A stretch of 64,000 nt of DNA from a virus (Duplodnaviria; Caudoviricetes): the IMG/VR virus record IMGVR_UViG_2588253903_000005, positions 11,653-75,652 of that record. One strand, written 5' to 3'. The stretch's first letter is position 1, and each line of letters starts with the position of its first letter. This document shows, one piece after another, positions 9,824 to 64,000 of this stretch. Under the pieces are notes generated by a model. The model ran no database searches, was not told the origin of the DNA, and was given only the letters and a program-made list of their open reading frames with translations. Both the position numbers and the translations under genes were made by a program.

Positions 9824-9832
9824 GTATACGGT

Positions 9833-11355: not shown

Positions 11356-11403
11356 TTCAGCCGAAAGGCTATATAAAAATTAAAGTTTAGGAGGGATTTG
11401 TCT

Positions 11404-38125: not shown

Positions 38126-39112
38126 ATGAGCAGAAATATCAACGAACTTCACCCAAGATTACAAGAAAAAGTTTCGGAGTTGCAGAAACTTTGCGAAAAT
38201 AACGGTTTGATTATCGGAATCGGCGAGTGCTTAAGAACGGTAGCAGAACAAGAAGAACTGTACGCACAGGGCAGGGATAAGCCTGGAAACATTGTCACAA
38301 ATGCAAGAGGGACTTCTTATTCCAGCCAACACCAGTGGGGGATTGCGTTTGACTTTTATCGAAATGATGGAACAGGCGCATACAATGAATCTGGGAACTT
38401 CTTTGAAAGAGTCGGGAGCCTTGCGAAATCTATCGGTTTAGGATGGGGAGGCGACTGGACAAGTATCAAAGACCGTCCGCACCTGTACCTTCCTGACTGG
38501 GGAAGCACTGCAACAAAATTAAAAAATCAGTATGGAACCCCAGAAAAATTCATGAAGACGTGGGGGGATTCAGGGAATGAAACCCATGCTCCGACCCATA
38601 CTTCTGATAACAGAAGGACGTATCTGAAAAGAGGGGATAAGGGACAGAACGTAAAAGATATGCAACTTATGTTGATTGGCTGCGGGTATTCCTGCGGAAA
38701 ATCTGGCGCAGATGGAATTTTTGGTTCTGGAACCGAAAAAGCACTCCTGAAATTCCAACGCGACAATGGGCTGAAAGAAGACGGATTGTATGGAAACGCT
38801 TCTAAGGCAAAACTTGAGAAGGTATATTCCAACAGAACGCAGATTGAAAAGGCGGATTACAAAGTAGGAAGCACCTATACCTTGCAGACAGAAATGAAAG
38901 TACGTGAGTGTGCAGGGACAACATACAGGGCAAAGAAACACAGTGATCTTACAGAGGACGGAAGAAAGCACGATGCAGACAGAGACGGATGCCTTGACAA
39001 AGGTACAAAGGTAACTTGTAAAGAGGTAAAGAAAGTCGGAGATGATACATGGATTCGCACTCCCTCTGGATGGATTGCGGCGGTTTATGATGGAAAAGTA
39101 TATGTAAAATAA
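38126..39112 (+). CDS. Endolysin: M15 peptidase, PG_binding_1 and SH3-like domain
   Basis: RTVAEQEELYAQGR, SQHQWGIAFD, GWGGDW..IKDRPH; LKRGDKG...DGIFG..TEKALLKFQ. Confidence 0.9.
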   Translation: MSRNINELHPRLQEKVSELQKLCENNGLIIGIGECLRTVAEQEELYAQGRDKPGNIVTNARGTSYSSQHQWGIAFDFYRNDGTGAYNESGNFFERVGSLAKSIGLGWGGDWTSIKDRPHLYLPDWGSTATKLKNQYGTPEKFMKTWGDSGNETHAPTHTSDNRRTYLKRGDKGQNVKDMQLMLIGCGYSCGKSGADGIFGSGTEKALLKFQRDNGLKEDGLYGNASKAKLEKVYSNRTQIEKADYKVGSTYTLQTEMKVRECAGTTYRAKKHSDLTEDGRKHDADRDGCLDKGTKVTCKEVKKVGDDTWIRTPSGWIAAVYDGKVYVK

Positions 39113-42100: not shown

Positions 42101-45100
42101 GCCGGGATAAATTCTGCATTAGGAGGGATTGACTGGAAAACCGCGCTTTCAGCGGCTAAGAAATGGGGTACTGGAATTGGAAACGCTATCAATGGATTTT
42201 TCAGAAAAACGGATTTTTCCACCGTTGGAAGCACGTTGGCAAATGCCTTAAACACTGCGATACAGCTTGCACTATCATCAGGGAAAAAGATAGATTTTGA
42301 GTTAATAGGAAAGAAAATTTCAGACGGAATCAATGGATTTTTCAAGACGTTCAGGGCTGATAAATTAGCGAAAGCCATAAATGTTTGGATGAAGGGCGCG
42401 CTGAAAACAGTTTCTACATTACTAAAGAAAACGGATTTTGATATGATTGGGAAGAAAATAGGAAAATTCCTTGCAGAACTTGATTTGACAGGAGCATTGA
42501 AAGGGCTGGCGAGCGTTGTATGGGAGGCGATAAAGGGAGCGTTTAACTTATTATCGGGAATTTTTAAATCCGCACCAATTGAAGCGTCTTTGCTTGTTGC
42601 ATTTTCGTTCCTGAAATTTACAAAGGTTGGGCAGATTTTTACTTCCAATCTTTTTTCTATTTTAAAAGGCGGGGCAACACAATCTTTAAATAAGTTTGCA
42701 AGTTTCTTCAATGGGGGATTGCTTGGAGTTATCGGAACAGCGGTAGCAGCATTTGCAGAATTTAGCGTTGTTTCTGATTCAATAGAGAATTTAACGCTCG
42801 GAACAGGAGATTTTATAGCAGAAATAGGTAAAATAGCAGGGGTTGTAGGGATTGCTTGGGCAGGAATGTCCGCTATACTTGGATTCCCAGCAGGAACCAT
42901 AGCTACTGCAATTGTTGGTATAGTAGGAGCGATAAAAGGGATAAGCGATGCATTTAAGGATATAAAAGCTGAATCCGCAATGCAATCAATAGCGAACGCA
43001 TTGAAAAAACCAGGTGGAACACCGATTGAAGATTTGACAGAGTTGTATTCGGATACAATTGGAAAAATAAAAAGCGGATTTGATGACATAAATGTAAAGT
43101 CAGAAGAACTTAAAACAACACAGACTAATGCAGAAAAAACAAGCAAAAAAATTGACCTCATAAAGTTTTCGATAGAAAACGGCTCAAAGGCTACGAAAGA
43201 AAAAACAACAGAAATAAAACAGGCGTTCGACAGTCTATTAAGCGATTCAAAAAGCATTTTTGAACAAGAATACGACGTTATCATGACGGGAATATCTGGT
43301 TCGTTGCAGCAATCGTTGACGGATGCTGGATATTCTGTTGAGCAGATTGTCGGAGTGATGGATTCGCTAAAAACGGAACATCAGAAAGAGATAGAGGAAA
43401 TAGAGAAAAATAACGAGAAGTTGAAAACCAGTTTTGAAAATGGGAAAATTTCTATCCAAGAGTATGCTGCAAAAATGCTAGAAAATTACGAAAAACTGGG
43501 CGAGATAACGGGAAAGACAGACGAGTATTCATCTGCCATTGAAAAGGTATCAGAGGCGGCGAAAGGCGTTGACTTAAGCGGAATAGTAAACAAAGACAAT
43601 ACAATTAACACAGGTCTTTTAGCAGAACAGTTCAAGGGGTTAAGCACAACCGCTACCGAGGCTAAGCAATCAATAAACGATTCATCTGCGGGGTTAACTG
43701 CGGCACTAAATGATTATGCAAAAGAAGCAGAAAGAACCAAAAATTCAGAAGCCGCAACAGCGATTAGCGATATGCTATCAGCAGAAGAAGCGAATGTGAA
43801 ATCAGCAACGGAAAGTGTAAACAATCAGTTAACAGAATACGGAAACCAAGTACAATATGCAGTTTTGGAAAAAATTCCAAGCGTGGTAGACGAAGCGGTT
43901 GCAGATTATGAGAACAAAAGCCCTATATACAAATTCTTTAATTCAGAAGAAAGCCATGTGCAATCCGCATTAGAGGAATACCAAAAAAATGTAATAGACC
44001 CGTCTACGGAAGAATTAGAACGTTTATATTCGGAAGCAGGAATTGAGGGGGCTACTTTTTCCTCTAATGCTGGGAAAGAAATAATAGATGCAATGTTTGA
44101 TGAAAACATAGTGTCAAGCGGGGAGCTTACCTACTATTCAAAGACATTGAAAAGCAATTATACAAAAGTAGTTAATAATGCTGTTGATGAAATAAAGAAG
44201 GATGCTAAGAAAAAATCTAAGCAAATAGGAAAAAATGTAGATGAAGGTACGAGGGATGGAGTAAACGAAAACCTTGGACTTGCAACTGGAGCAATAGGCG
44301 GCATGGCAAACCAAATGCTTAGAAAGGCAAGGGAAACCCTTGGAGTGCATAGCCCATCTACAAAATTTAAAGAAATCGGTGGATATGTCGTAGAAGGAAT
44401 GAAGGGAGGGATTTCTGGAAAATGGGGAGAATTCAGCGAGTTTTGGGCAAAGAAGCATGATTACATTATAAATAAATTTAATGGAATAAAAGAAAAATTC
44501 GGGACAAAAGGAAAGGATATAATATCAGGAATCCGGTCTGGAATATCTGATAAATGGAACGATTTCAGTACGTTTTGGGGAGAAAAGAAAAGTAGTATCA
44601 TAGATAAATTCAATGATATAAAAGAAAAATTTAATACAAAAGGTGGAAATATAATTTCTGGCATAAGGTCTGGCATATCTGGGAAATGGGGTGAATTTAA
44701 TTCTTATTGGACAGAAAGAAAAAATTCTATAGTAGAGAAGTTTAAAAATATCAAAGAATCATTCCAGGGAAAGGGTGGCGATATTATATCTGGGCTAAAA
44801 AGCGGTATTTCCAGTAACTGGGATGGTTTTGTTGGATGGTGGGCAGAAAAAATCAAGGCAATGGTGAATGGGATACTGGATGGAATAAACTGGGTTCTTA
44901 AAAAAGTTGGCTCTAGTACACAGCTAGACCCATGGGAGCCAAAAGGATTTGCAAAAGGAGCCAACGGACTTCCGCAAGACACCATAGGAATCGTAAACGA
45001 CCAGAAAGGAAGCACATACAAAGAACTTATCGTGCCGCCACATGGAAAGCCATTCATCCCAGAGGGCAGGAATGTCATGCTTCCCATGAAAAAAGGGACA

Positions 45101-46114
45101 AAAATCATGCCAGCCCGCCAGACGAAGGACTTCATGGAGAAAATGAACAATATGCCGCATTTTGCCGGAGGTATTGGTGATTTCTTTAAAGGTGCATGGG
45201 CAAAGATATCAGAGTTTACCGGGAATATCTGGGACTACATTTCAAACCCAGGGAAGATTTTGCAGATTGCATTTGACAAATTCACGGATTTATCCGGGAT
45301 GCTTGAACCCGTGCTTTCCATAGCTACAGGGGCTGCAAAAACGCTTCTGGATGGCGCAACAGGTTTTATAAAGAAAATGTTCGACGAAAACCTTACGGTG
45401 CAGTATAACCCGTCCCAAGGAGTGGAACAGTGGCGCGGTCTTGCGACAAAGGCGTTGCAGATTACAAACCAGTTCACAGCACCAAACTTAACCGCCTTGC
45501 TAACACAAATGCAGCATGAATCCAGTGGAAATCCAAAGGCAATCAATCTATGGGATTCTAATGCAAAGAAGGGAACCCCATCCAAAGGACTTATGCAGGT
45601 CATTGACCCGACGTTCCGGGCGTATGCATTAGCACCACACAATAAAGATATATGGGACCCGCTTTCAAACATGATTGCGGCCATCCGGTACACAGTATCG
45701 CATTATGGCAGCTTATATTCCGGATGGACTGCGAGAGGATATAAAGGTTATGCCTCTGGAATAGGAAAAATAAACCTTGCAGACCTGATACCAAAATACA
45801 GGGCAGGCGGGTTCCCGGAAGATGGATTGTTCTATGCAAACCATACAGAACTTGTTGGAAGATTCAGTAACGGACAGACAGCAGTAGCGAATAACGGGCA
45901 GATTACGCAGGGGATTGCAGAAGCAATATACCCAGCGGTATACAATGCGGTTTCTTCTGCAATGAGAAATAATGGAACATCTGGAAGTGTGGACATATCT
46001 CTACAATTAAACCTGGACGGGGATGCAGTTTATAAAAATGTTGTGAAACGGACAAGGGAAGGGAGGGATAGGAATATAGGTGGTAGACTTGTTCTTGCGG
46101 AAGAGGTTTATTAA
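39164..46114 (+). CDS. Tape measure protein with C-terminal lytic transglycosylase domain
   Basis: 2316 aa, helical, 44-aa W/F repeats; QHESSGNPKAINLWDSNAKKGTPSKGLMQVIDPTF. Confidence 0.95.
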   Translation: MARMATIDRLDIQIEGSAQKANVAINDLIKNLDRLANSLKIDTSGLEKIGKSLNLSGIDKAAKNMQSQTQKVSKSLSQITEQYKDLGKGFEIKGSTQQIQKQIDSLTNKLANAKLAKDDFEASGKANLGGYETAVKNVIKYTNQIESLKKQLEGLQTAQPKLDFNVAGAESQTKYLVEYKKQLIDFKNDMKSIGDVYGGLQNVPKGGLDTLIQNLKQSIEELKQSYPQATNVISAFEKELQKLQGISSGLTKEPIRANIDTSSIDKVSEKIAELKNRFEKVGSDFKFTGNFEQLNIEIEKVYSKLNELRTKEQEMISAGQVNTSGFEQLQESLARVGNKFGIMQDLRDRTEAFNQSLQQLRVPEIREENLTKLQNSLRKTEADTEKLRTKLSNAITMGRIVPNIDDSGFRKLTEQIALSEKQAEALRQKIQEVGGDTSGTGSIMDRLKSSLSNVSSQSSKTSSATNILSKNIKNLSSTMSGFSKSAGKAVTGLKSFARQALSAMGIYLGVYGAVRGLKSSLESSMNYIEILNYFNAAFGQVAEKADYSKFEEMGYDSAEAYYNSFSERAKELTEKMSGFTMNESGMLESGGMKSLGIDPTKLMNYQAMFGQMSSSMGATSENALRLSTVLTEIGADLASVKNMKFEKVWNDMASGLAGMSRTLDKYGANIRNVNLQQKLNELGISANISALNQNDKALLRTIILLDSTRYAWGDLAKTINQPANQLRLLQSNFSNLGRAIGNIFLPIVAKVLPYINMLVQALTRLAEWLVKLLGFEGFDWGGGGGGNSTPDILGDIYDNAEDASGALDKVSESAKKAKAGLRGFDELKTINMPESNEPDDGAGGAGTGGIDSGLLQGALDSILDEYQAAWDKAFSEMENRANTFADNVAKAFKEKGLYGVGEYFSKSITSALESIPWDSVYEGARMFGSGLASFLNGLISPDLFGALGKTIAGALNTALHFLDSFGETFDFTNFGVSIGAGINSALGGIDWKTALSAAKKWGTGIGNAINGFFRKTDFSTVGSTLANALNTAIQLALSSGKKIDFELIGKKISDGINGFFKTFRADKLAKAINVWMKGALKTVSTLLKKTDFDMIGKKIGKFLAELDLTGALKGLASVVWEAIKGAFNLLSGIFKSAPIEASLLVAFSFLKFTKVGQIFTSNLFSILKGGATQSLNKFASFFNGGLLGVIGTAVAAFAEFSVVSDSIENLTLGTGDFIAEIGKIAGVVGIAWAGMSAILGFPAGTIATAIVGIVGAIKGISDAFKDIKAESAMQSIANALKKPGGTPIEDLTELYSDTIGKIKSGFDDINVKSEELKTTQTNAEKTSKKIDLIKFSIENGSKATKEKTTEIKQAFDSLLSDSKSIFEQEYDVIMTGISGSLQQSLTDAGYSVEQIVGVMDSLKTEHQKEIEEIEKNNEKLKTSFENGKISIQEYAAKMLENYEKLGEITGKTDEYSSAIEKVSEAAKGVDLSGIVNKDNTINTGLLAEQFKGLSTTATEAKQSINDSSAGLTAALNDYAKEAERTKNSEAATAISDMLSAEEANVKSATESVNNQLTEYGNQVQYAVLEKIPSVVDEAVADYENKSPIYKFFNSEESHVQSALEEYQKNVIDPSTEELERLYSEAGIEGATFSSNAGKEIIDAMFDENIVSSGELTYYSKTLKSNYTKVVNNAVDEIKKDAKKKSKQIGKNVDEGTRDGVNENLGLATGAIGGMANQMLRKARETLGVHSPSTKFKEIGGYVVEGMKGGISGKWGEFSEFWAKKHDYIINKFNGIKEKFGTKGKDIISGIRSGISDKWNDFSTFWGEKKSSIIDKFNDIKEKFNTKGGNIISGIRSGISGKWGEFNSYWTERKNSIVEKFKNIKESFQGKGGDIISGLKSGISSNWDGFVGWWAEKIKAMVNGILDGINWVLKKVGSSTQLDPWEPKGFAKGANGLPQDTIGIVNDQKGSTYKELIVPPHGKPFIPEGRNVMLPMKKGTKIMPARQTKDFMEKMNNMPHFAGGIGDFFKGAWAKISEFTGNIWDYISNPGKILQIAFDKFTDLSGMLEPVLSIATGAAKTLLDGATGFIKKMFDENLTVQYNPSQGVEQWRGLATKALQITNQFTAPNLTALLTQMQHESSGNPKAINLWDSNAKKGTPSKGLMQVIDPTFRAYALAPHNKDIWDPLSNMIAAIRYTVSHYGSLYSGWTARGYKGYASGIGKINLADLIPKYRAGGFPEDGLFYANHTELVGRFSNGQTAVANNGQITQGIAEAIYPAVYNAVSSAMRNNGTSGSVDISLQLNLDGDAVYKNVVKRTREGRDRNIGGRLVLAEEVY

Positions 46115-46190: not shown

Positions 46191-46256
46191 GATGGAATTG
46201 TAGAGGGAAACTTGGAACCCGGAGAGTCTGGACGCTATGCCAGATTTCTTCGGGTT
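46191..46256 (+). promoter_or_regulatory. Structured leader element, copy 2
   Basis: Matches 6664-6725; downstream of TTGACA-17-TAGATT (46133-46161). Confidence 0.65.
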
Positions 46257-46329
46257 TGTTTATTTTCGGGAAAATACCAAAGATAAACACTGTGAAGTTG
46301 CGGGAAAACCAAATATCGGAGGTATCATT

Positions 46330-47028
46330 ATGAAACTAAGACTTGTGAAGCAGGGAGATTTCTTAGGAACAAAGTGTGATTTTTATGTGGATGAGGATAA
46401 CAACATCTACATGAGCAGGACACAGATAGGGTATGCGCTGGAATATAAAGACCCGTCTAATGCGGTCAAGAATATTCACAACAAATATCAAGAAAGATTT
46501 GACAGATTTTCAGTTGAAGTATCGGGTGCTCAGTTTGTACCCCCGATAAACAAGAATAAAAATTCCCCTAAGATTTATATGTATGCGGAAAAGGGAATTT
46601 ATGAGGTTTGCCGGAGGTCAAGACAGACGGTTGCGGACAAATTCTATGACTGGGCATATGATACCATTTCAGAAATTAAGAAGAATGGATTTTATATCGC
46701 CAACGGTAAAGATGAAAAATGGATAGGAATAAGGCGGGAAACAAAGCAAGTCCGAAAGAACGAAACGGACATGATACAGAAATTTGTAGACTATGCCATA
46801 TCGCAAGGAAGCCAAAACGCAAAAAGATACTACACGCATTTGACAAACCTTGCAAATAAGCGTTGCGGCATTAAGACGGGCGAGCGTGACAAGGCAGACC
46901 AGAAAACATTGCTTCGGCTGAAATCCTTGGAAACGCTGATTGATATGAGGTTAGAAACACTTATGAATAACAATATCCCATATAAAGAGGTGTTTTCTGA
47001 TGTTAAGGACATGATTGAGGGGATTTAA
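46330..47028 (+). CDS. Bro-N-like antirepressor
   Basis: YMSRTQIGYALEY...MYAEKGIYEVCRRSRQTVADKFYDW. Confidence 0.7.
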   Translation: MKLRLVKQGDFLGTKCDFYVDEDNNIYMSRTQIGYALEYKDPSNAVKNIHNKYQERFDRFSVEVSGAQFVPPINKNKNSPKIYMYAEKGIYEVCRRSRQTVADKFYDWAYDTISEIKKNGFYIANGKDEKWIGIRRETKQVRKNETDMIQKFVDYAISQGSQNAKRYYTHLTNLANKRCGIKTGERDKADQKTLLRLKSLETLIDMRLETLMNNNIPYKEVFSDVKDMIEGI

Positions 47029-47244: not shown

Positions 47245-48006
47245 ATGAATGAGATAATCAAAATCAACAACCACGATGTAGAAGTAAAAGAGTACAAGGG
47301 TCAAAGAGTGGTAACATTCAAAGATATTGATACAGTACATGAAAGACCGGCTGGGACGGCAAAGAGGAATTTCAACGACAACAAGAAGCACTTTATTGAG
47401 GGCGAGGACTTCTTTGCAATTCCCTATTCGGAGTTCTGTACGGAATTCGTACCCAACCCACCAAAGGGCGGAAATCCGAACGTTCCAGTAAATTTAATGA
47501 CGGAGCAAGGCTACCTCATGTTGGTAAAATCCCTTACAGATGATTTGGCGTGGAAGGTGCAGAGGGAGCTTGTCAATGGGTATTTTAGGGCTAAAAAGGC
47601 AAAATCAGCCATAGAGGAATTACAGGAGCTTCAAAGCAGGGCAATACTTGAAGTAAATGAAAAAGTAGGAGAAGTAGAGAACAGGATAACCAGGCTTGAA
47701 AACAACATGACAATAACCCATGAGCAGATACAGATAATCAAGAATCGGGTAAACGCAAGAATTGTAAATGATGTTCTTGGCGGTTACGAGAGTAACGCAT
47801 ACAACGATGTTCATTTGAGAAGCAAGGTTTACAGCCGGTTCAACAAAGATTATTGCGATTACTTCCGCATCAATGCAAGGACAAACACATTAGCTTCAAA
47901 ATTTGATGAAGCTCTGCGATATATTGATATGTGGGAGCCTGACACGAATATGAAGTTGATGATACAGAACGCAAATGCACAAATGAAAATAGAGGATATA
48001 GCATAG
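47245..48006 (+). CDS. ORF6N plus ORF6C domain antirepressor-like protein
   Basis: EYKGQRVVTFKDIDTVH...FNDNKKHFIEGEDFF; C-terminal KFDEALRYIDMWEP. Confidence 0.85.
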   Translation: MNEIIKINNHDVEVKEYKGQRVVTFKDIDTVHERPAGTAKRNFNDNKKHFIEGEDFFAIPYSEFCTEFVPNPPKGGNPNVPVNLMTEQGYLMLVKSLTDDLAWKVQRELVNGYFRAKKAKSAIEELQELQSRAILEVNEKVGEVENRITRLENNMTITHEQIQIIKNRVNARIVNDVLGGYESNAYNDVHLRSKVYSRFNKDYCDYFRINARTNTLASKFDEALRYIDMWEPDTNMKLMIQNANAQMKIEDIA

Positions 48007-53002: not shown

Positions 53003-54277
53003 TTAAGAAGCTAATGGTTCATCAGGAGGAAGTAATCCTTCTCGTTGTAATAACTTCTTGGCTTGTTTGATAGCCTTTGCCTTTTGTTTTTCAAGCAGAG
53101 GTGCAGGCATATCGATTTTGTAAAGATCGCTCGGATTCCACTGCTCACCAGTAGACAGCATCTGGTAGATGGCAGTAAGAATCATGCGGGCAATAGCGAT
53201 TATGGCTCTTTTCTTGCCACGGCGTTTAACAAGTGAATCATATTTCTTTTTGTAGTAAGGAGATTTGTCAGATTTTACGGCTGCATGAGCACACTGTACT
53301 AATGCAGGTTTGAGGTAGACACCGGCACGCGTAATCCGGACAGACTTCTTCTTACCAGCGGATTCATTGCTGCCGGGGGTTAGACCAGCCCAGCAGCATA
53401 AGCGTTTGGAACTCGAGAACTGAGACATATCAGTACCAATTTCGGAGATGATAGTGATTGCACTATCATGTTTTACACCCGGAATGGTACAGAGAAACCG
53501 GACAGCATTTTCAAAATCAGGATTAGAAGAAATCATATTTTCAATCATTTTATCAACATCATTGATTTCAGCTGTGATATAATCCATATGTGCACGGACA
53601 AGGCGCATACGGTATTTTTGGGCATCAGTCATCTGATATCCTTCGACGGATTCTATAACAGCATCTTCTTTGGATTTGAGGCTCCTTAGAAGTTTAGATG
53701 CGATTTCTTCGTGGTTAATGGATGTACCCGATTGTTCAAGCAGATAGTCAATAATGGATGTGGATGACTTCCCAAAGATATCGGAAACAACAGAATCTAA
53801 TGCAACATTGCAAACAGTAAGAGCATTCTGATATCTATTCTTTTCACTTGAACGGCAGGAAACAAGCTTATAACGATAGCGAGTGTATTCCCTGAGAATA
53901 CGGACTTTCTTGCAAGGGATATAACTGCCTTTGACAAGTCCAAGACGGAACAAATCTCCAATCCATTTAGAATCTTTGGCATCATCTTTGTTGCCTTTTA
54001 CCGCCTTGACCCATTTGGGATTGGCAATGACAACATTGATTTCATCTTCCAGAAGATTAAAGACAGGAATCCAGTATTTACCTGTGGATTCCATACAGAC
54101 ATCATGGCAATCATTGTCGAGAAGCCATTGCTTGAATTCGAGAATGGAATTGTTAAAGGTAGAAAAGCGCTTCTTTTGGTAAGAAGGCTCAATGCCACCG
54201 GTAGTTTTGACGATTGTGGCAACGAGAAACGATTTGTGAACATCGACACCACAACAGGTTTGGTAAGTAACTTTCAT
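53003..54277 (-). CDS. IS110 recombinase/transposase
   Basis: CGVDVHK, MESTGKYW, KDDAKD, TIPGV, WAGLTP...ESAGK. Confidence 0.95.
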   Translation of the reverse strand: MKVTYQTCCGVDVHKSFLVATIVKTTGGIEPSYQKKRFSTFNNSILEFKQWLLDNDCHDVCMESTGKYWIPVFNLLEDEINVVIANPKWVKAVKGNKDDAKDSKWIGDLFRLGLVKGSYIPCKKVRILREYTRYRYKLVSCRSSEKNRYQNALTVCNVALDSVVSDIFGKSSTSIIDYLLEQSGTSINHEEIASKLLRSLKSKEDAVIESVEGYQMTDAQKYRMRLVRAHMDYITAEINDVDKMIENMISSNPDFENAVRFLCTIPGVKHDSAITIISEIGTDMSQFSSSKRLCCWAGLTPGSNESAGKKKSVRITRAGVYLKPALVQCAHAAVKSDKSPYYKKKYDSLVKRRGKKRAIIAIARMILTAIYQMLSTGEQWNPSDLYKIDMPAPLLEKQKAKAIKQAKKLLQREGLLPPDEPLAS

Positions 54278-54528
54278 AGTCAGACTCCTTTCGTAAAAGA
54301 TGAGAAGCCATTGACTGAACTGCCACACAATTAAACTAAGGCGCTTAAACAATTCTTAGTGTACGGATTCGTAATTCCACTTATTTGTGCTTGAAAAGGC
54401 AGAACTTACACTGATTTATATGCTGTCTAAAACGAAGAAAGTTATTACAACTCCTCCTCTCGTGCTTTGTAGTTTAGCTTCTCACAAACTATTTTACAGC
54501 ACAGCGTAGAGAGTTGGAACACTTTCAT
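54278..54528 (-). ncRNA. Probable IS110 bridge-RNA-encoding non-coding end
   Basis: About 250-nt non-coding region 5' of the recombinase, where IS110-group elements encode bridge RNA; structure not verified. Confidence 0.5.
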
Positions 54529-54573
54529 TACTATTTGTGCCGCCAACTGAAAGGCGGCGGAATGGAGATTTAT

Positions 54574-55167
54574 ATGGATGATTTAATGATTAAAAACGTA
54601 GATGTATTTGGCGATAGCATTATGGCAGTACAGGACGTAGATGGAATAATTTGGGCGGGTGTAAGTTTCTTTTGCAAGGCTCTTGGAATGAGCGGCACAC
54701 AAAGAGATACACAGGTTGAGAAAATAAGGACAGATAAAACACTTTCAAAGGCGACCCGGAAATTTCCGGGTGGGGTATTTGGGACAACAAATGAAGCATA
54801 TGCATTAAAATTAGATTTTGTTCCTCTCTGGCTTGCCAAAATTTCAATCACGAAATGGATGGAGAAAGAGCACCCAGAGCTTGCAGAGAAACTACTGAAC
54901 TACCAGTTGAAAGCCAAAGACATCCTTGCAGACGCTTTCCTCCCAAACAGGGAATCCGCACCAGTACAGGTATATAACCCGTCCGAAATCCCATTAGGTG
55001 AACTTGCAAGCTATCTTAAAATTATGGACAGGGTAGCGAACCGCCAGAATCTCGCATCTTATAAGATTGCAGAGAACTTCAAGAAAGTGTCGGAGCAGTT
55101 CGGCGTGCAGCTTTCGGACGATTTTGTGAATGTGCCGGACTATGTGCAGCAGACCCTTGATATATAG
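54574..55167 (+). CDS. Phage antirepressor N-terminal domain protein
   Basis: VDVFGDSIMAVQD...LDFVPLWLAKISIT...LLNYQLKAKDILADAF; paralog of 419-1075. Confidence 0.8.
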   Translation: MDDLMIKNVDVFGDSIMAVQDVDGIIWAGVSFFCKALGMSGTQRDTQVEKIRTDKTLSKATRKFPGGVFGTTNEAYALKLDFVPLWLAKISITKWMEKEHPELAEKLLNYQLKAKDILADAFLPNRESAPVQVYNPSEIPLGELASYLKIMDRVANRQNLASYKIAENFKKVSEQFGVQLSDDFVNVPDYVQQTLDI

Positions 55168-57347: not shown

Positions 57348-57809
57348 TTGCTTGAAAAAAAAGAAAGGAAAAGTAAGTATGCAGGGTGGCTTGTTAAAAT
57401 TGGCGATTACATCATTCCGACAAACAGATTTATTGCGGCAGACAGTTACAAGGCATACGCAAATATGCAAGACATTGACCCATGGACGGATGCAAACGGA
57501 TATTTGCATAGGAATGCAGTAAGATTAAAGGCTCTTAAGGTTGAATTTGAAACGCCGGCCATGCTTACAGATGAAGATTTTTCAGAATTAATGTGGAACA
57601 TAGACAGAAACATTACAAATGCAGATGCAAACGAATGTTATATTGAAGCGTTTATTCCAAGATACAACAGATATGAAAGACAAAAAGGATATTTGGTCGA
57701 TATAGAGCCGCAGATTTATGGAAATTACGAAAGAGATAATTCTGGAAACGGAATTTTACGTTATGACCCAATCAGGATTGCTTTTGTAGGAGGTGTTTAC
57801 AGTGGTTGA
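57348..57809 (+). CDS. Distal tail-type protein
   Basis: Position after the TMP island; D..TDANGYLHRNAV..K.KVEFETP. Confidence 0.65.
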   Translation: MLEKKERKSKYAGWLVKIGDYIIPTNRFIAADSYKAYANMQDIDPWTDANGYLHRNAVRLKALKVEFETPAMLTDEDFSELMWNIDRNITNADANECYIEAFIPRYNRYERQKGYLVDIEPQIYGNYERDNSGNGILRYDPIRIAFVGGVYSG

Positions 57810-60800
57810 TTACAAATACAAGGATCTATACAATAAACCACATATTGATAAGCAGATGAAGATTATTGCGTGCGATTATGTTGGGTATGGTGCGCCAGAA
57901 AGCAAATATCCGGCAAAATTAGAATATGAGGGAAAAGTTTATCTGGATGCAGAAACAAATTATTATTACAAGTGCAGAAAATCAGGTATTTCCTATACCT
58001 GGGAAAAGGTTGAACATGAATATGAATTACTCGCATTCAAAAACAGCGACATAGACTGGGAAAATTTTGAACTGTCGGAAAGTCTTTGCTCTGAATCAGA
58101 ACTCCGTTTTGGATGCTGTGAAGCAAGCGTCCTGAAATTCAGGATACATAATACGTTTGTTTCCTTAAAAGACAAATGGGTGACAGCTACAGAAGTTTTG
58201 GAAGGACATTCAGATTCTCCATTCCAATTTGGAAGATATAAAGTATTTTCGGATGTACCGACGGCGGATAGGCTATACCGAGATGTGACAGCTTACGATG
58301 CCATGTACGACATCATCAATTCCAGTGCGATTAACTGGTATAACACAATCCTTCCCGAAAGAAACAGTAAAGTCACAATGCGCCAGTTCCGTACAAGCTT
58401 TGTGAATTATTTTGGGCTGGAACAGGAAGAAATAACCCTTGTAAACGATGACATGATTGTTGAAAAAACAATCCAAGTAGAAGAAGGGGTGGAAATCGAA
58501 AACGAAACAGAGCATACAAGCATAATAAGGGAATCTTCGTTAAGCGGGAAAGACGTAATAACTGCAATCTGCGAGATTAACGGATGCTTCGGGCATGTTG
58601 GGCGCGATGGGAAATTCCATTATGTCTATTTGAAACAAGACATCATGGGCTTATACCCAAGCAACACATTATTCCCAGACCACGCGCCTTGGTATTTGAA
58701 GCAGTCAGAGACAGGGCATTTATACCCGCAAGACCCAAAATCCACAAGTCTGGGCACGGGAAAATATAAAAGCTGCCAATATGAGGATTTTATTTGCAGG
58801 AGGATAACAAGGCTGCAAATCAGGCAGGAAGAGAATGACATAGGGAAGATATGGCCGGAAGGGGAGAAAAAGCCAGACGACAACTGCTATATTATTGAGA
58901 ACAATTTCCTTGTCTATGGAAAATCTTCCGATGACTTGAAGGTGATAGCAAAAAACATATTCAACAAAATAACAGATATTGTGTATCGGCCTTTTTCTGC
59001 TGATTGTGTTGGAAATCCCTGTTTGGAGGTTGGAGACCCAGTAAGGCTTCCGACAAGATACGAACTTGTGGAATCCTACATTTTAAGCCGTGTATTAAAA
59101 GGTATACAAGGTCTTGGGGATTCGTACAGTGCAAATGGAACGGAAAAATATTCGGAGAAGTTAAATGGAATTCATAACTCCATTATACAATTAAAGTCCA
59201 AAGCAAACATACTGAAAAGGACGATAGAGGAGACGAGAAGCGAACTGATAGATTCAGATGCGGGGCTGAATTCTCTGATTTTGCAAACAGCGGGAGAGAT
59301 CAGGGCAGAAGTAAAAAACACAAAAGAGGGATTGGAATCTTCGATAAGCCAGACGGCAGAAAGCATAACAAGCACAGTTGCAAGAACAGAAAAAATATGG
59401 AGCGAGAAAGAAGAAGACGGAACACCAATCAATATAGGAAAATACGGGCTTGGTGCCCCTCCAAGGATAATGACGGCAGAAGAATATACACCAGGGCTTA
59501 AATACTTAGACCAGACAAGCGGGAAAGTATATGTTGCGATTAAGCATCACCCAATGGACAGGCCGCAATGGGTGGAGTGGAGAGAATACGCGCAACTTGA
59601 GCAGGTTAGCACAACTATAAGGACAGAAATAAAGCAGACAGCAGAAGGAATACGGCAAGAAGTTTCAGATTCAGAAAGAGGGCTTTCGTCAAGGATAGAG
59701 CAATCAGTGAAGGCTATAGATATGTCTGTTGTTAATGGATCTACTTCTGCAACCTTGAATCTTTCGGTAACAAAAGAAAATGGAAGCGTAATAACCGGGC
59801 AAGCAAAAGAGATAAAATTTTCTGGACTTGTCAGCTTTGAAAACCTTGCAGCAAATGACGGGAAAACAATAATAAATGGAGGAAATATTACAACCGGAAA
59901 TATAAATTGCGATAGGCTGAACGGAGGGAAAATCAAAGGGCAGACTTTTGAAGGAGGGAAAATAACCGGGGCAAATATAGAGGCAAAATCAGCTTATTAC
60001 ATAAGGGACCCGGATTTTGATGATAGGTATAGAGTTATTTACATTAAGTCTGACAGTACAAGCGATACTGAATTAAGGATTGGGAGGATATCGAAAAATG
60101 GGTATGAATCTGGGTATAATTATTTGGCTTTCAAAGAAAGTTCCCAAGACAGAAGTTGCCACATATACAGCGACTTAATGAGGGCTCATTGTGAATTACA
60201 GGCAACAAAATTGTATGCAAATCGATATTTGGATTTCACACAAGATTCTGGAGAAATGGGGGTTAGGGTAAATGTTAGCCACGAAGGGCTTGCGCATTAC
60301 ATAATCGGTTACAGGCAAGAAGATAGATTTACATTTGCCGGGGTTCCAGCATCGCAATACAGCGATTCTCCGACATCATTAAGGCTGCGAGGAAATTCCG
60401 TAGTTTTGAGTTCTGCTGGAAGCATAACCCCTTCTGATGAACGATTAAAAAATTCATTCAAGCCATTGGATGGATTTGATGAAGTGTATATGGAAATAGA
60501 TCCGTGCGCATTTAGATACAACAAAGGAACTTCTGGAAGATATCATTTCGGAGTAAAGGCAAAAAACGTTAAAGATGCGTTTGAGAAGCATGGATATACA
60601 ACGAAGGATTTCGGAGGGTTCGTGCAGATGTATGATAACCCAGAAAATGAGGATTACTGCGGCATAGAAGACCCTATGGGGATTATCTATACAGAGTTTG
60701 TCATGTGGAACACACATATGATCCAGAAGCTTTATAAAAAAATAGAAGAACAGCAGGAAGAGATAGATTCGTTAAAAGAATCTGTCTCTTTTTTAATGGG

Positions 60801-60822
60801 AAGGGTTGAAAATTATGAATAA
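57793..60822 (+). CDS. Tail-associated/baseplate hub protein with C-terminal peptidase S74 chaperone
   Basis: FGCCEAS, GNPCLEVGD; TPSDERLKNSFKPL...RYHFGVKAKNV. Confidence 0.85.
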   Translation: MFTVVDYKYKDLYNKPHIDKQMKIIACDYVGYGAPESKYPAKLEYEGKVYLDAETNYYYKCRKSGISYTWEKVEHEYELLAFKNSDIDWENFELSESLCSESELRFGCCEASVLKFRIHNTFVSLKDKWVTATEVLEGHSDSPFQFGRYKVFSDVPTADRLYRDVTAYDAMYDIINSSAINWYNTILPERNSKVTMRQFRTSFVNYFGLEQEEITLVNDDMIVEKTIQVEEGVEIENETEHTSIIRESSLSGKDVITAICEINGCFGHVGRDGKFHYVYLKQDIMGLYPSNTLFPDHAPWYLKQSETGHLYPQDPKSTSLGTGKYKSCQYEDFICRRITRLQIRQEENDIGKIWPEGEKKPDDNCYIIENNFLVYGKSSDDLKVIAKNIFNKITDIVYRPFSADCVGNPCLEVGDPVRLPTRYELVESYILSRVLKGIQGLGDSYSANGTEKYSEKLNGIHNSIIQLKSKANILKRTIEETRSELIDSDAGLNSLILQTAGEIRAEVKNTKEGLESSISQTAESITSTVARTEKIWSEKEEDGTPINIGKYGLGAPPRIMTAEEYTPGLKYLDQTSGKVYVAIKHHPMDRPQWVEWREYAQLEQVSTTIRTEIKQTAEGIRQEVSDSERGLSSRIEQSVKAIDMSVVNGSTSATLNLSVTKENGSVITGQAKEIKFSGLVSFENLAANDGKTIINGGNITTGNINCDRLNGGKIKGQTFEGGKITGANIEAKSAYYIRDPDFDDRYRVIYIKSDSTSDTELRIGRISKNGYESGYNYLAFKESSQDRSCHIYSDLMRAHCELQATKLYANRYLDFTQDSGEMGVRVNVSHEGLAHYIIGYRQEDRFTFAGVPASQYSDSPTSLRLRGNSVVLSSAGSITPSDERLKNSFKPLDGFDEVYMEIDPCAFRYNKGTSGRYHFGVKAKNVKDAFEKHGYTTKDFGGFVQMYDNPENEDYCGIEDPMGIIYTEFVMWNTHMIQKLYKKIEEQQEEIDSLKESVSFLMGRVENYE

Positions 60823-61972
60823 TGCGCATATGGATTTAATTTGGAAAAACTATCCAAGTGAAGAATCTCCAGTAAATGAAGAAAATTTAAACCGCATGGT
60901 ACGTTCAATCAATTTAACAGATGAAAATGTACATAATTTGGATTCAAACAAAGCAACAAAGGATGAAGTTGCGCCGTTAATAGCAGATGTTCAATTCGAT
61001 GAATCTACAGGAACATTTATATTTATAAGGAAAGATAGTGTCAGATATGAAGCTAGAATATGGGACACAAAACTTGAACAGCTTGTGGAAAATCTTGATT
61101 TCGATGAAGAAGCGCAAGAACTAATCATAATAAGGGCAGACGGGAAAAGAATACGAGTTGATGTTTCTGCGTTTGTGAAACCAAATGAATTTTTAAACAG
61201 TGATACGATTCTATTTTCCATTGAAAATGGAGGAAAGGTAAGGGCAATTGTTAAAGAGGGAAGTATCGAGGAAAAGCATCTGCGCCCAGACTATCTTGCG
61301 GATATCAGGGTGGAACAGGGGAAGGCACAGCTAAGCGCAGTGAAATCAGAAGAATTCGCAAAACTGTCCGAAAGCTATGCGCATGGAGGAACCGGGGTGA
61401 GGGAAGGGGAAGATGCGGATAATGCAATGGAGTATGCCAGACAGGCAAAGGAGAGCGCGGACAGGGCAAATAATATAGTTTCTGGCGGACTTGTAACCGG
61501 AGTAAAAGGGTATAATGAAGACCTGTACAGAACCGGGGATGTAAGCCTAGGAATGCACGATATATTGCCCCGGAATTCTGTAAATTTATCAGATGTCCCA
61601 GTGGACAATTCCTGGCATGACATAGAGATTGAGGGTATTTTGGAAGGGATAAATATAGTTAAGGCGATCGTATGGGTTAAACGTAGAGAGGAAATATACT
61701 TTGGGATATATACAGGTATGTTTAATTGGTATAGGCAAAAAACGGAAATTTCTGATTTTACAGAAGAAATACCACTTGATTTTTCTGGTGACATGTATGT
61801 GCCACCAAGTCAAGGAACTACTACTTGGCCTGCTTCAAGGTTTTACTTGAGGAAAGCATGGGGAAAAGACAAATTCCCTTCTTTGCAATTATCAATTGCC
61901 AGAGGAATGCCTGGCTTAAGTGCAAGGGTTGAACTTACAATTATTAACCTGCTTTCGTTTTTACACATATAG
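60815..61972 (+). CDS. Minor tail/fibre protein
   Basis: WKNYPSEESPVNEENLN, SESYAHGGTGVREGEDADNA, VTGVKG motifs. Confidence 0.65.
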   Translation: MNNAHMDLIWKNYPSEESPVNEENLNRMVRSINLTDENVHNLDSNKATKDEVAPLIADVQFDESTGTFIFIRKDSVRYEARIWDTKLEQLVENLDFDEEAQELIIIRADGKRIRVDVSAFVKPNEFLNSDTILFSIENGGKVRAIVKEGSIEEKHLRPDYLADIRVEQGKAQLSAVKSEEFAKLSESYAHGGTGVREGEDADNAMEYARQAKESADRANNIVSGGLVTGVKGYNEDLYRTGDVSLGMHDILPRNSVNLSDVPVDNSWHDIEIEGILEGINIVKAIVWVKRREEIYFGIYTGMFNWYRQKTEISDFTEEIPLDFSGDMYVPPSQGTTTWPASRFYLRKAWGKDKFPSLQLSIARGMPGLSARVELTIINLLSFLHI

Positions 61973-62005: not shown

Positions 62006-62953
62006 ATGGATTTAAAGGATATCATAAACGGGACATGCCGGAAAGCCATCAATGATGAAAGAGGCAATAACATATTAGAAACATACCAGAAAAAACTTGG
62101 GATTGGGGAATTCATAGGGAACATTGACTTGATAAGTAAAAATAGTGTATGCCTGTGCTGGAGTATCAAATGTGAAGGAACTTTCCCGCTTGACAATATG
62201 GTTTGTATTTTAAAAACAGAAAATTATGAAGAAGCAGGGGATACGCAAGCATTTGTATTTCAGACAGCATTGCCAGTTGATGGGAAAAATGAAGGGAGAT
62301 GCTTCATAAGGAAAAAAAATCTGGTAGGAGATGAAGTTTCAGCTTCAGATTGGCATGAAATCCCATCTGATGCGACGATTAACAAATTTGAAATAAATTT
62401 TGACAGTGAAGACGATGAAAACCCAGTAGCATGGACATCCATGCGGAAAATAGTCAGCGGGAAGATAAAAGACTTATTTGGGAATGTTTCCATCATGGCT
62501 AAAAATATCCGGTGGCTTTATAAAATGCTTGGGACAACCGATATCGCAAGCATTGGCGGCGGGACGCTGACAGGGGCAATTAGTAAGCTAAACACCGATT
62601 TCCTGAAGGCGAATGAGGTTAAGTACCTTGAGATGCCACAGCCCCCAACCAATGGCATGTTCGTTAGCTTTTCCCACTGGGTATTCCATGTCACTAAAGT
62701 CGGGAGGGTGGTGACAATAACGACAAATTTTGCAGGGCATATGAAAGCATCATGGGACAACCAATTATTATTAACCCTCCCAGCAGAATATTCCCCATAT
62801 GACTGGTATGAGATATTTCCCCATATTACGCAAGGTGGCAATACTATCTTAGTTGGCATTTCACATGACGGGAGTGTAGAGTTCAACAGCCTTGGGAAGG
62901 AAATAGATGATTGGTTAGCCAGGTGGTGCATCACATATATAGCTAGGGAATAG
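62006..62953 (+). CDS. Tail fibre / receptor-binding protein, currently expressed C-terminal variant A
   Basis: TTDIASIGGGTLTGAISKLNTD junction followed by a beta-rich tip. Confidence 0.8.
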   Translation: MDLKDIINGTCRKAINDERGNNILETYQKKLGIGEFIGNIDLISKNSVCLCWSIKCEGTFPLDNMVCILKTENYEEAGDTQAFVFQTALPVDGKNEGRCFIRKKNLVGDEVSASDWHEIPSDATINKFEINFDSEDDENPVAWTSMRKIVSGKIKDLFGNVSIMAKNIRWLYKMLGTTDIASIGGGTLTGAISKLNTDFLKANEVKYLEMPQPPTNGMFVSFSHWVFHVTKVGRVVTITTNFAGHMKASWDNQLLLTLPAEYSPYDWYEIFPHITQGGNTILVGISHDGSVEFNSLGKEIDDWLARWCITYIARE

Positions 62954-63310
62954 CCATGCCGCATCCCGGCAATTTTATTTCAAGGGGTAGATGATTACAA
63001 ATATTTCAGCATAATCCAACGGCGTCTTGAAAAATATGTCCATTTTTCCACTAGCCCTCATGCAGATTGAGCTCATTTTACCAATATCTTCGTATGATGC
63101 ATTATATGATGGGATCCCCCTCATATCTGTTCTGGGCGCATAGGGGGCTGAAATTTTTGCAATTTGGGTCACCATTTCTGTCGTCCCAGCAGGTGCCCTC
63201 CCAGTTATCCAGACAATACCATTTTTTACATATGCGCTATCAAAGGTTGTCCCTTCTTTGAGTATAGTAATTTCATTCTTGATATCTTTATAGGACAAAT
63301 CGGTGTTTAG
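62588..63310. mobile_element. Invertible tail-fibre cassette bounded by 14-bp inverted repeats
   Basis: CTAAACACCGATTT at 62588-62601 (+) and 63297-63310 (-); inversion fuses the alternative ORF in frame. Confidence 0.85.
62975..63310 (-). CDS. Silent alternative tail-fibre C-terminus (variant B)
   Basis: Reads LNTDLSYKDIKNEITILKEG...IYPLK* from the repeat; no RBS or promoter of its own. Confidence 0.8.
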   Translation of the reverse strand, partial: LNTDLSYKDIKNEITILKEGTTFDSAYVKNGIVWITGRAPAGTTEMVTQIAKISAPYAPRTDMRGIPSYNASYEDIGKMSSICMRASGKMDIFFKTPLDYAEIFVIIYPLK

Positions 63311-63440
63311 TGAACAGAATAAAAATGGTACAACTGGATTCGGAAAATATTCTATAATTAAGAAAAAGAAAGAAGTAAAGATAAAAAAACAAAATTTTAT
63401 TGCATTTAAAAATATGGTTAAAATAAGTTGTTCTTTATTT

Positions 63441-63482
63441 CACGAACCGCATACCTTATTTTAAATATGCGGTTCGTGTTTT
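63441..63482. terminator. Perfect 13-bp hairpin
   Basis: CACGAACCGCATA/TATGCGGTTCGTG. Confidence 0.65.
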
Positions 63483-63544: not shown

Positions 63545-63738
63545 ATTATTTTTGTTCGCCAAACAAAAATTTAAATTTTTGAATTTTACACATAGACAAA
63601 ATATTTTCTAATAACACTTCTAATCCTGCATAATCCGTATTACATAAGTCGAAAATTTCCTCATAGTGGATACCTGAATTTTCACAAATCTTAACGAGGG
63701 TATCAAAACGTATATTTGAAGCGTCTCCATTTTTAATT
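63545..63738 (-). pseudogene. C-terminal part of an XRE HTH gene cut by the IS
   Basis: IKNGDASNIRFDTLVKICENSGIHYEEIFDL...GEQK* begins exactly at the IS end; stop position approximate. Confidence 0.6.
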
Positions 63739-64000
63739 TGGATCTATGTCAATACTTTAGACAAAAAAAGTCGAAAGGTTATGCTGCTTTTTTAAGTTCC
63801 TCATCCTCCTTTTGTTGGGGTGTCATATAACCAATAGCACTGTGTATTCTTTTACGGTTATACCAGCCCTCTATGTATTCAAAGATTGCTCTGCGGGCTT
63901 CCGCTGAATCCTGATAGGTATGGAGATAGATTTCTTCCTTTTTCAGCACGGAATGGAATGACTCAATACAGGCATTGTCATATGGATTTCCCTTACGGCT
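63739..64000 (-). mobile_element. IS3-family element, right end (runs off the window)
   Basis: SRKGNPYDNACIESFHSVLKKE...YIEGWYNRKRIHSAIGYMTP (CDS ends 63779); terminal ...TTGACATAGATCCA. Confidence 0.9.

Follow-up and report, generated by a model that had tools for sequence, protein, structure and literature searches.

Comparative evidence for an invertible receptor-binding protein tip, without its own recombinase gene, in a Lachnospiraceae prophage

Can a DNA segment at the end of a phage tail operon act as a host-range switch when no recombinase gene lies next to it, and if it can, what turns it? The question is raised by a provirus record of 75.6 kb from the Lachnospiraceae (Bacillota), of which we analysed a stretch of 64,000 nucleotides (the window) whose right end is the end of the public record. 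The first-pass annotation of this DNA described an invertible tail-fibre tip, likened it to the Gin system of Mu and the Cin system of P1, and proposed that inversion is catalysed in trans, possibly by a serine recombinase at 9029, or that the switch is now frozen.

The repeat that defines the segment, CTAAACACCGATTT, is an exact 14-bp inverted repeat with two copies in the whole 64-kb window, even when two mismatches are tolerated. They stand where they had been annotated, at LNTD codons of the ‘fibre’ gene and 5′ of a promoterless ORF on the opposite strand. The left crossover site (IR-L, 62588-62601, plus strand) supplies codons L195-N-T-D198 of a 315-aa ORF (62006-62953, plus strand), which in the current orientation runs on into head cassette A (FLKANEVKY..., 62602-62953, plus strand), delimited from the ORF and cassette comparison and expressed at present. 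The right site (IR-R, 63297-63310, minus strand) stands at the head of silent cassette B (LSYKDIKNE..., 62975-63296, minus strand), which has 107 codons and a stop, and no promoter or start codon: its sole ‘start’ is a TTG made by the repeat itself, and no sequence resembling a ribosome-binding site was found 5′ of it. The proposed in-frame exchange of a 315-aa product for one of about 305 aa holds up, since the minus strand read from IR-R is open through LNTD and 107 codons (ORF 62975-63298), giving a predicted flipped product of 198 + 107 = 305 aa. The cassettes are convergent, with stops 22 bp apart, and between them a small G+C hairpin followed by a T-run (62957-62971, plus strand) is terminator-like, by consensus match only.

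By chance alone the 14-bp repeat is unremarkable: simulated windows held a mean of 0.43 exact 14-mer inverted pairs no more than 1 kb apart, and 25% of simulations had at least one. What makes it significant is the reading frame, together with its conservation. The only other exact 14-mer inverted pair within 1 kb in the window (6307/7004, 14-16 bp) lies in AT-rich low-complexity DNA and was rejected as another switch.

What would be exchanged is a receptor-binding head. The 315-aa protein had no match in Pfam, PHROG or NCBIfam; phmmer matched it to 960 clusters, mostly over aa ~120-200 only. It is laid out as a variable N-terminal part (~aa 1-120), a conserved neck (~aa 120-198) and head A (aa 199-315), and the phmmer matches mark LNTD as the boundary between neck and head throughout a large modular family. 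The repeat is located at this neck-head junction. AF2 models of the two heads reached a pLDDT of ~90-97 (A >90, B ~90). Top Foldseek matches of heads A and B in the PDB were 6r5w, 4v96, 3hg0, 2f0c and 2bse, and the best matches of head A were PSA gp15, TP901-1 ORF49 and the p2 receptor-binding proteins; matches to TP901-1, p2 and PSA had E ~1e-4 and probability 1.00, with ~115 residues aligned at 3.5 Å. For both heads the predicted fold resembles that of the receptor-binding head in the lactococcal phages TP901-1 and p2 and in Listeria PSA. The shoulder/neck/head plan and beta-sandwich head of those proteins match the predicted model, while sequence identity to the heads here is just 11-18%. 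Given the AF2 and Foldseek results, receptor-binding protein with a TP901-1-type head would be a better name for this gene than the earlier ‘fibre’. DNA inversion is not known to switch the heads of TP901-1, p2 or PSA. The PDB contains functional TP901-1/p2 chimeras with swapped heads (3d8m, 3da0), consistent with a swap at the neck-head junction.

Upstream are distal-tail genes for a tail fibre/spike-like protein (1009 aa, with a Peptidase_S74 chaperone domain) and a 388-aa protein (57793-61972, plus strand), in the same gene order as in relatives. Holin and endolysin genes directly follow the receptor-binding protein gene on its 3′ side in three related loci (L002, L008 and L027) and in phage Jekyll, and judged on these relatives the gene is the last structural one before the lysis genes. 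Where relatives have lysis genes, the window has an IS-disrupted region 3′ of the receptor-binding protein gene, and the XRE gene annotated as IS-broken is indeed found there: it is represented by a C-terminal fragment of an XRE-type HTH protein (~63590-63745, minus strand), which directly adjoins one end of an IS3-family element, of which the transposase C-terminus is present (63779-64000). Outside the invertible segment, a 13-bp perfect hairpin followed by TTTTCC (63441-63478, plus strand) is possibly an operon terminator usable by either orientation; it was not called in the terminator scan because its loop is 12 nt.

The two sites have been conserved together. Related loci L002-L011 were defined by a common left flank plus the repeat and hold five cassette types; in every one of the 11 related loci, these included, the two repeat copies match perfectly and the opposite-strand cassette is open and in frame. 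In a survey of the host genus the neck was present in 11/49 genomes, and repeats fall exactly at the LNT[D/G/E] junction in 11 of 25 loci. Their cores read TAAACAC[C/G]G[A/G], with both arms co-varying within a locus at a synonymous position; the co-varying C/G position probably lies within the strand-exchange region. In G075, a genome further removed, the pair measures 21 bp, lies at LNTN and has the core TAAACACGAAT. The family core in IR-L, TAAACACCGAT (62589-62599), is also present in shufflons encoding an invertase. Beyond the right arm, alignment of right-hand sites reveals a conserved outer flank, TGAACAGAATAAAAATGGTACAA (63311-63333, no strand assigned), in which the TGAA beside the core is retained in 6/6 aligned sites, among them those of invertase-bearing shufflons. 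Silent cassette E, compared between two orphan loci with identical repeats (L005 and L011), has a dN/dS of 0.096 at a dS of 0.88 and is under purifying selection. Purifying selection on silent cassettes could date from residence in invertase-bearing phages.

Relatives also display the alternative joint. Three proteins, P0001 (305 aa), P0014 (304 aa) and P0015 (313 aa), carry a window-type N-terminus joined at LNTD to head B, and differ from the window in the shared part by 1 to ~5 residues; on this sequence evidence the predicted 305-aa flipped product is present in public assemblies. Head B is the C-terminus of 12 full-length proteins and recurs as a stand-alone 107-aa ORF (P0013), and silent A-type ORFs are found elsewhere with unrelated sequence and then LNTD in front of them (P0031, P0033, P0036, P0038, P0040). 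The ENA contigs recorded for P0004, in which B is expressed, and for P0039, which is A alone, both measure 46,636 bp and are probably one and the same. Within IMG/VR, an exact scan for the predicted flipped junction gave no match, and a search with head B and a B-type protein alignment gave no relatives. Other head pairs were found both ways round. L065 expresses head F and L066 expresses head G: their upstream 3.7 kb are 99.84% identical, identity stops exactly at the repeat and the interior matches in inverted order. The D/E pair likewise occurs in both orders (L005 and L050). Contigs with the exact left flank of the window have one orientation per pair (A/C in 5 records, D/E in 4).

Could all this arise with no programmed inversion, the repeat being a module boundary of a mosaic family and the cassette debris of illegitimate or homologous exchange? 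The ease with which a 14-bp repeat occurs, the position of LNTD as a boundary throughout the family and the abrupt loss of L065/L066 identity at the repeat, which shows cassette exchange there, would fit such a history. It sits badly with arms that are perfect although the heads have diverged past recognition at the DNA level, with their co-variation at a synonymous position, with purifying selection on silent cassettes, and with the dedicated recombinase and four-site arrays of the sister loci described below. We think it quite improbable, and take the comparison of these loci as decisive for a real flip switch.

A candidate enzyme is found in sister prophages of the host genus, which carry four sites (core TAAACAC[C/G]GAT), four tips and a 346-aa recombinase within the locus. 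In one of them (L058) the sites are at 4734(+), 5355(-), 6940(+) and 7700(-), the four intact heads have 92, 104, 152 and 98 aa, and the recombinase gene (5777-6817) lies between two cassette pairs. Xer-like tyrosine recombinases of 338-348 aa are in or beside the switch at two loci in G405 and in G403, G409 and G412 (loci L057, L058, L061, L075 and L076). They have PF00589 and Phage_int_SAM_4 domains and no arm-binding domain, score above the NCBIfam XerA cut-off, and have XerC-like proteins and XerD as nearest solved structures; the three compared in full are 82-88% identical. Four sites, four tips and an internal Xer-like tyrosine recombinase make these loci shufflons of the Rin type. At an identity of at least 79%, the recombinase was found in 5/11 neck-positive and 0/38 neck-negative genomes of the genus (one-sided Fisher p ~2e-4), and the orphan switches of G405, G403 and G409 have the same core variant as the co-resident full shufflon. 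From position and co-occurrence we infer that the tyrosine recombinase of the relatives acts on the core.

No such gene is found here. The absence of a recombinase beside the switch, noted in the first-pass annotation, extends to the whole 75.6-kb provirus record: a PF00589 search found only a 414-aa integrase, at the left end, and tblastn with the invertases of the relatives returned only this integrase, as a weak match. The complete Lachnospiraceae genome G001 (5.3 Mb) has a receptor-binding gene 98% identical to that of the window, in a prophage that is otherwise unrelated, and the search of this genome for the shufflon recombinase gave no match above 33% identity. A protein identical to the 315-aa product is encoded on a 3.2-Mb contig at NCBI. 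The enzyme is absent as well at orphan switches of G404, G407 and G445, the last retaining just an 82-aa remnant. No invertase remnant was found 3′ of the right arm, and homology to invertase-bearing loci stops a few bases outside the core. Since sisters encode the recombinase and the window record and G001 do not, the copy here is an orphan.

Several other sources of activity were considered. The phage integrase is unlikely as the invertase, the integrases of two prophages with the same gene being 23% identical. An IS110-family (Piv-like) transposase (53003-54352), rejected as the invertase, belongs to an ordinary multi-copy IS; the element is also in G001, with none within 78 kb of its switch, and none is in the L002 record. 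With one mismatch tolerated, the 14-mer occurs in the 5.3-Mb G001 genome at the two arms only; there is thus no regulon of such sites, and a master invertase serving identical sites was discarded. Nor is there a sign of a diversity-generating retroelement: direct template/variable repeats are absent, and no reverse transcriptase appeared in any search.

The closest system is the tyrosine-recombinase Rin shufflon of Bifidobacterium breve and Bifidobacterium longum prophages (Mavrich et al. 2018, PMC6109161); a Rin-type shufflon is also known from Eggerthella lenta prophages (PMC8778435). Rin has a constant N-terminal siphophage receptor-binding part and several start-less TP901-1-like head cassettes, as here, where the constant part (aa 1-198) is accompanied by two start-less cassettes with an identical in-frame inverted crossover repeat, the 14-bp pair, at each cassette head. 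Both use a short asymmetric 11-bp core, rix TTCCCTAACCC in Rin and TAAACAC[C/G]GAT here. The armless Xer-like tyrosine invertase of Rin has no counterpart in or beside the window locus and has one of like architecture in five related loci. The hosts are of different phyla, Bifidobacterium in one case and Lachnospiraceae (Bacillota) in the other, and core sequence and protein family also differ. Rin has its recombinase at the end of the array, while relatives of the window have it between two convergent cassette pairs; and Rin comprises several cassettes plus the recombinase, where the window copy has two cassettes and no recombinase.

Gin (Mu), Cin (P1), Pin (e14) and Min (p15B) reach the same outcome, a constant N-terminal fibre with alternative C-termini and a change of host range. 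They employ a small adjacent serine invertase, 26-bp sites with a 2-bp crossover and a Fis-bound enhancer. The earlier likeness to Gin and Cin is apt for function and not for the enzyme: there is no adjacent small serine invertase (Resolvase plus HTH) and no intact serine invertase here, and the recombinase of the relatives is a tyrosine enzyme. Compared by eye with hixL and gix, the site gives only ~11/26 matches, an unconvincing likeness.

The proposed serine recombinase at 9029 consists of remnants that are not part of the switch, a 266-aa protein (9023-9823, plus strand) followed by a 118-aa one (9833-10189, plus strand). These are the only PF00239 matches in the record, 53 kb from the switch. 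As the sole serine recombinase there, with weak matches to a DNA invertase in PHROG and to the Mpi family in NCBIfam, the first protein might be thought to invert the segment, with or without the second. It has Resolvase and Recombinase domains only, though, with no zinc-ribbon or coiled-coil, and is a truncated large serine recombinase that best matches large enzymes of the CcrB and integrase type; the ORF after it encodes part of a catalytic domain, starting at profile position 57. The gene is also missing from the G001 prophage and the L002 record, both of which carry the switch: no serine recombinase was found within 140 kb in G001. With relatives that employ a tyrosine enzyme, a role for this gene is very improbable indeed.

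We put the probability at about 0.8 that the locus is a two-cassette minimal unit of a tyrosine-recombinase receptor-binding-protein shufflon, without a recombinase gene of its own. In this reading the 315-aa protein has three parts: an anchor, a helical neck, which is conserved, and a beta-sandwich head of ~115 aa for binding the host receptor. Recombination between the inverted TAAACACCGAT cores in the LNTD codons would invert the 695 bp between the arms; the constant part of 198 residues would then read on in frame into head B instead of A, and adsorption specificity would change. For flipping here, the cell would have to supply such an enzyme from another source, such as a co-resident full-shufflon prophage; if it does not, the copy would be frozen in the A state. 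With no cognate recombinase in the 75.6-kb record, action in trans and a frozen switch, as first proposed, are still the right pair of options.

Locus and proposal have a precedent in bifidophages 689b-1 and Bb423phi2, which are integrated at tRNA-Met and have a second inverted locus without a flanking recombinase, for which the authors proposed an invertase acting in trans (PMC6109161). There the 3′ end of a tail-region gene is exchanged by inversion of ~500 bp at an 8-bp repeat; the genes were of no recognised function and no cognate recombinase family was found, whereas here the fold is recognisable and sister loci provide a candidate enzyme. It is a tentative and rather doubtful view that orphan two-tip switches stay functional because a trans-acting enzyme flips them, be it the Xer-like invertase of a full-shufflon prophage in the same cell or a Xer protein of the host. 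If it is true, unrelated prophages in one Lachnospiraceae cell would share one switching enzyme and a pool of receptor-binding heads, and the 11-bp core would be both the flip site and the joint for cassette swapping between phages.

A host enzyme acting with no phage invertase, either a chromosomal XerC/XerD-type or another resident tyrosine recombinase, seems unlikely. The cognate enzyme of the relatives is itself Xer-like with no arm-binding domain, hosts in the genus have 15-57 tyrosine recombinase matches per genome, and trans-acting invertases are documented in the literature quoted in passages of PMC6109161 and PMC9881135; nonetheless no dif-likeness of the site was established, a B. 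subtilis-type dif pattern had no match in G001, and no specific candidate emerged. Alternatively the unit may have lost its recombinase by deletion or modular exchange, with no flipping now and head B stored but unreachable. This is a sub-case of our preferred explanation, with the same family and origin, and differs on present activity only. The shufflon recombinase is absent from both the 75.6-kb record and the complete G001 genome, orientation is uniform over near-identical contigs, and the 14-mer is nowhere else in G001; set against these are two perfect sites with the same core as in active-looking shufflons, an intact head B ORF, near-identical N-termini found fused to B, and a dN/dS of ~0.1 in the silent cassette of orphan loci. 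We regard a frozen relic as quite possible, if somewhat short of probable.

The two-cassette shufflon unit does not introduce a new principle, since Rin shufflons and a recombinase-less bifidophage inversion have already been described: the switch is a reduced copy, with two tips, of a four-tip shufflon, a kind of host-range switch already known. On the comparative evidence, this gut prophage has a real DNA flip switch able to give its last tail protein another receptor-binding tip, and the locus shows the neck-head junction (LNTD) to be both a site-specific crossover point and a boundary of exchange between phages. With two intact heads whose fold class is known, a core of 11 bp and a candidate recombinase in sister prophages, it is a compact testable case, suited to asking whether switches without an invertase are turned in trans or survive as stored relics. 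Head switching sets the strains open to infection by a temperate gut phage, and thus matters for phage-host dynamics in the Lachnospiraceae, a family that is dominant in the gut and has been little studied.

The window covers the final 64 kb of an IMG/VR provirus record 75.6 kb long, and both end at the same point. A sequence search of it finds the 14-mer CTAAACACCGATTT exactly twice, at 62588-62601 (+) and 63297-63310 (-), confirming the exact inverted repeat that the first-pass annotation had placed at LNTD codons. The left copy lies at codons L195-N-T-D198 of a 315-aa ORF (62006-62953), whose expressed C-terminal head we call A. Read on the opposite strand, the right copy opens in the same frame into a silent cassette, head B (LNTD-LSYKDIKNE..., 107 codons), whose stop is 22 bp from that of the expressed gene. 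Cassette B has no ribosome-binding site, and its sole 'start' is a TTG made by the repeat. Exact 14-mer inverted pairs at most 1 kb apart number 0.43 on average per simulated window, with at least one in a quarter of the windows; the 14-bp repeat alone is thus not improbable, and the case rests on the reading frame and on comparison with relatives. A 16-bp inverted pair is also present, with one copy (6307-6322) in an AT-rich repetitive tract (6280-6560) upstream of an ORF (6760-7356) and the second ~700 bp off, inside that ORF (7004-7019); it is low in complexity, probably chance or origin-like DNA and not a second switch.

Twelve full-length proteins in the protein collection end in head B. 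P0001 (305 aa), P0014 (304 aa) and P0015 (313 aa) join it at LNTD to a window-type N-terminal part that departs from the window's own at one to about five positions, and match exactly the flipped product of about 305 aa that had been predicted. Head B as in P0001 is also called as a stand-alone 107-aa ORF (P0013), which we read as its putative silent state. A-type heads are likewise found as ORFs in which unrelated residues come first, followed by LNTD; one of them, P0036 (...NVCS-LNTD-FLKANEVK), resembles the window's right flank. P0004, with B expressed, and P0039, an A-type head alone, both have an ENA contig of 46,636 bp as their recorded source, probably one and the same.

The 315-aa protein has no match in Pfam, PHROGs or NCBIfam. 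A phmmer search of 1.8 billion representatives returned 960 clusters, most aligning with residues ~120-200 only and stopping at LNTD, which therefore marks the point where a conserved neck module meets a hypervariable head module. The AlphaFold2 model has helices at 154-175 and 188-202 and a confident beta-sandwich at 205-315 (pLDDT above 90). A Foldseek search of the PDB with this model ranks three groups highest, namely Listeria phage PSA gp15 (a receptor-binding protein), lactococcal phage TP901-1 ORF49 and the p2 head, with E about 1e-4, a probability of 1.00 and about 115 residues aligned at 3.5 A. The head of the B form (P0001) is predicted with equal confidence and has the same structural matches. 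Upstream of the switch gene are a 1009-aa fibre/spike-like protein and a 388-aa protein, and in relatives the switch gene is the last structural gene, followed by holin and endolysin. Given the module boundary at LNTD, the predicted head folds and the gene position, inversion is predicted to exchange receptor-binding heads precisely where neck and head join. Among isolated phages, only Roseburia phage Jekyll has a homologue of the neck, which there lies mid-way in a much longer (843-aa) protein.

Three public collections were scanned with the left flank and repeat as query; the ten loci found belong to nine distinct records, since one viral record holds two of them. Every locus has a perfect inverted pair and an open in-frame cassette on the opposite strand, with arms 608-640 bp apart (695 bp in the window). 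Five head types occur in all, window included: the window alone expresses A and keeps B silent; five records, including the complete chromosome of Lachnospiraceae bacterium JLR.KK009 (G001), express A and keep C silent; and four express D and keep E silent. The silent E cassettes of two of these loci, L005 and L011, differ by 41.5 synonymous and 20.5 non-synonymous changes (dS 0.88, dN/dS 0.096) with the repeat unaltered, and such conservation would not be expected of a sequence that is never expressed. The G001 prophage and the window's phage share the gene at 98% identity and almost nothing else, so the switch moves between phages as a module. Lysis genes lie 3′ of the switch in L002, L008 and L027, with a tRNA next in L002 and host genes next in L008. 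None lie 3′ of the window's switch; its endolysin gene (38126-39112), 65% identical over 154 aa to the endolysin 3′ of the G001 switch, is directly upstream of the 2316-aa tape-measure gene (39164-46114), an unusual order.

Across 49 species genomes of the G001 genus the neck is present in 11, at 25 loci. Eleven of these loci have inverted repeats of 11-25 bp, 539-1223 bp apart, whose first base falls exactly at LNT[D/G/E] codons and whose core is TAAACACCGAT, TAAACACGGAT or TAAACACCGGA. In G075, a more distant genome, the pair is 21 bp long, its core is TAAACACGAAT and it lies at LNTN. Within one locus the two arms always have an identical core variant. Two contigs (G407:C5, locus L033; G411:C25, locus L047) stop 12-13 nt into LNTD, right at the crossover core; a break there is what a flipping or repeated site, with its two alternative continuations, would be expected to cause in assembly.

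Cassette pairs are found in both orders. For the F/G pair, F is expressed and G silent in L065, and the reverse holds in L066. These two loci are 99.84% identical over the 3.7 kb that leads up to and includes the repeat, and their interiors match in inverted orientation at 68-79%. Identity between these prophages of different species falls exactly at the repeat (L065 5018-5034; L066, reverse complement, 3703-3717), so the core also serves as a seam at which phages exchange whole cassette pairs. For the D/E pair, D is expressed in L005 and an E-type head in L050. At one orphan switch (L063, G404:C22, 3233-3313) a stop cuts the expressed head to 26 aa, the silent A-type head (120 aa) being intact, and the present orientation yields a truncated receptor-binding protein.

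Directly after or within the switch, five neck loci (two in G405, one each in G403, G409 and G412) carry a tyrosine recombinase of 338-348 aa. It has PF00589 and Phage_int_SAM_4 domains, lacks an arm-binding domain and scores above the XerA cut-off of NCBIfam; among solved structures an XerC-like protein and XerD are nearest to it, and three copies compared in full are 82-88% identical. On its sequence, L058 is a clean four-way shufflon, with TAAACACGGAT sites at 4734(+), 5355(-), 6940(+) and 7700(-), four intact heads (92, 104, 152 and 98 aa) in two convergent pairs, and the recombinase gene (5777-6817) between the pairs. Each pair has the layout of the window's unit. The recombinase (at least 79% identity) is found in 5 of 11 neck-positive versus 0 of 38 neck-negative genomes (one-sided Fisher p about 2e-4). 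The two recombinases of G405 are 88% identical and their cores differ at the C/G position only; this fits a base in the exchange region at which partner sites would have to match and which the enzyme need not read.

No shufflon-recombinase homologue is found in the window or the 11.6 kb to its left, the sole match being the integrase (E 1e-6 to 1e-8), which bears out the earlier observation that no recombinase adjoins the switch. A recombinase remnant was looked for 3′ of the window's right arm and none was found; homology to invertase-bearing loci ends a few bases outside the core. The shufflon recombinase is also missing from G404 and G407, G445 has only an 82-aa remnant, and nothing in G001 exceeds 33% identity. 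Within ~50 kb of the G001 switch the only recombinase is a tyrosine integrase, 23% identical to that of the window record; there is no serine recombinase within 140 kb, no IS110 transposase within 78 kb and, allowing one mismatch, no further 14-mer in the genome. The large serine recombinase proposed as catalyst (9023-9823, 266 aa; annotated at 9029) was rejected, since it is truncated, without the zinc-ribbon and coiled-coil part, and absent from other prophages carrying the switch. The ORF after it (118 aa, to 10189) aligns with the resolvase catalytic domain at positions 57-129 only, and 9023-10189 looks like two decayed recombinase genes adjoining. In three orphan-switch genomes (G405, G403 and G409) a full shufflon of matching core variant is present as well, which makes action in trans plausible there. 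The window's copy is an orphan, flipped in trans or frozen, with roughly even odds between the two.

Elsewhere in the window, an intact IS110-family transposase (53003-54352 (-), 449 aa; DEDD_Tnp_IS110 and Transposase_20) lies in the accessory region between the tape-measure gene and the distal tail genes; five ORFs of the same score and length in G001 make it an ordinary multi-copy IS shared with that host lineage. Six anti-repressor (Ant/KilAC/Bro-N)-like genes are scattered through the prophage (419-1075, 1804-2658, 8103-9002, 46237-47028, 47245-48006 and 54514-55167), three of them in the tail-gene region. Well away from the tail module, a 215-aa ORF (11398-12045) in the early/replication region has a match to PHROG 1491 'tail fiber protein' (E 3e-50).

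Tail-fibre genes are a recognised target class of programmed gene-altering inversions, and cases of invertible regions with no recombinase close by have been documented (PMC9881135). Of the systems described so far, the Rin shufflon of Bifidobacterium prophages comes closest; it combines a constant N-terminal part of the receptor-binding protein with TP901-1-like variable C-termini, an 11-bp rix core and an XerD-like armless tyrosine invertase. The same study describes an inversion of ~500 bp at a repeat of 8 bp that no recombinase flanks, and suggests that an invertase is provided in trans (PMC6109161). Rin has also been reported in Eggerthella prophages (PMC8778435), and our literature search found no description of a Rin-type system in Lachnospiraceae phages. 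The first-pass annotation was right about the kind of element, an invertible head switch, and wrong about its likely enzyme. The window's locus, an orphan copy, is real but ordinary, and belongs to a class that is already known.
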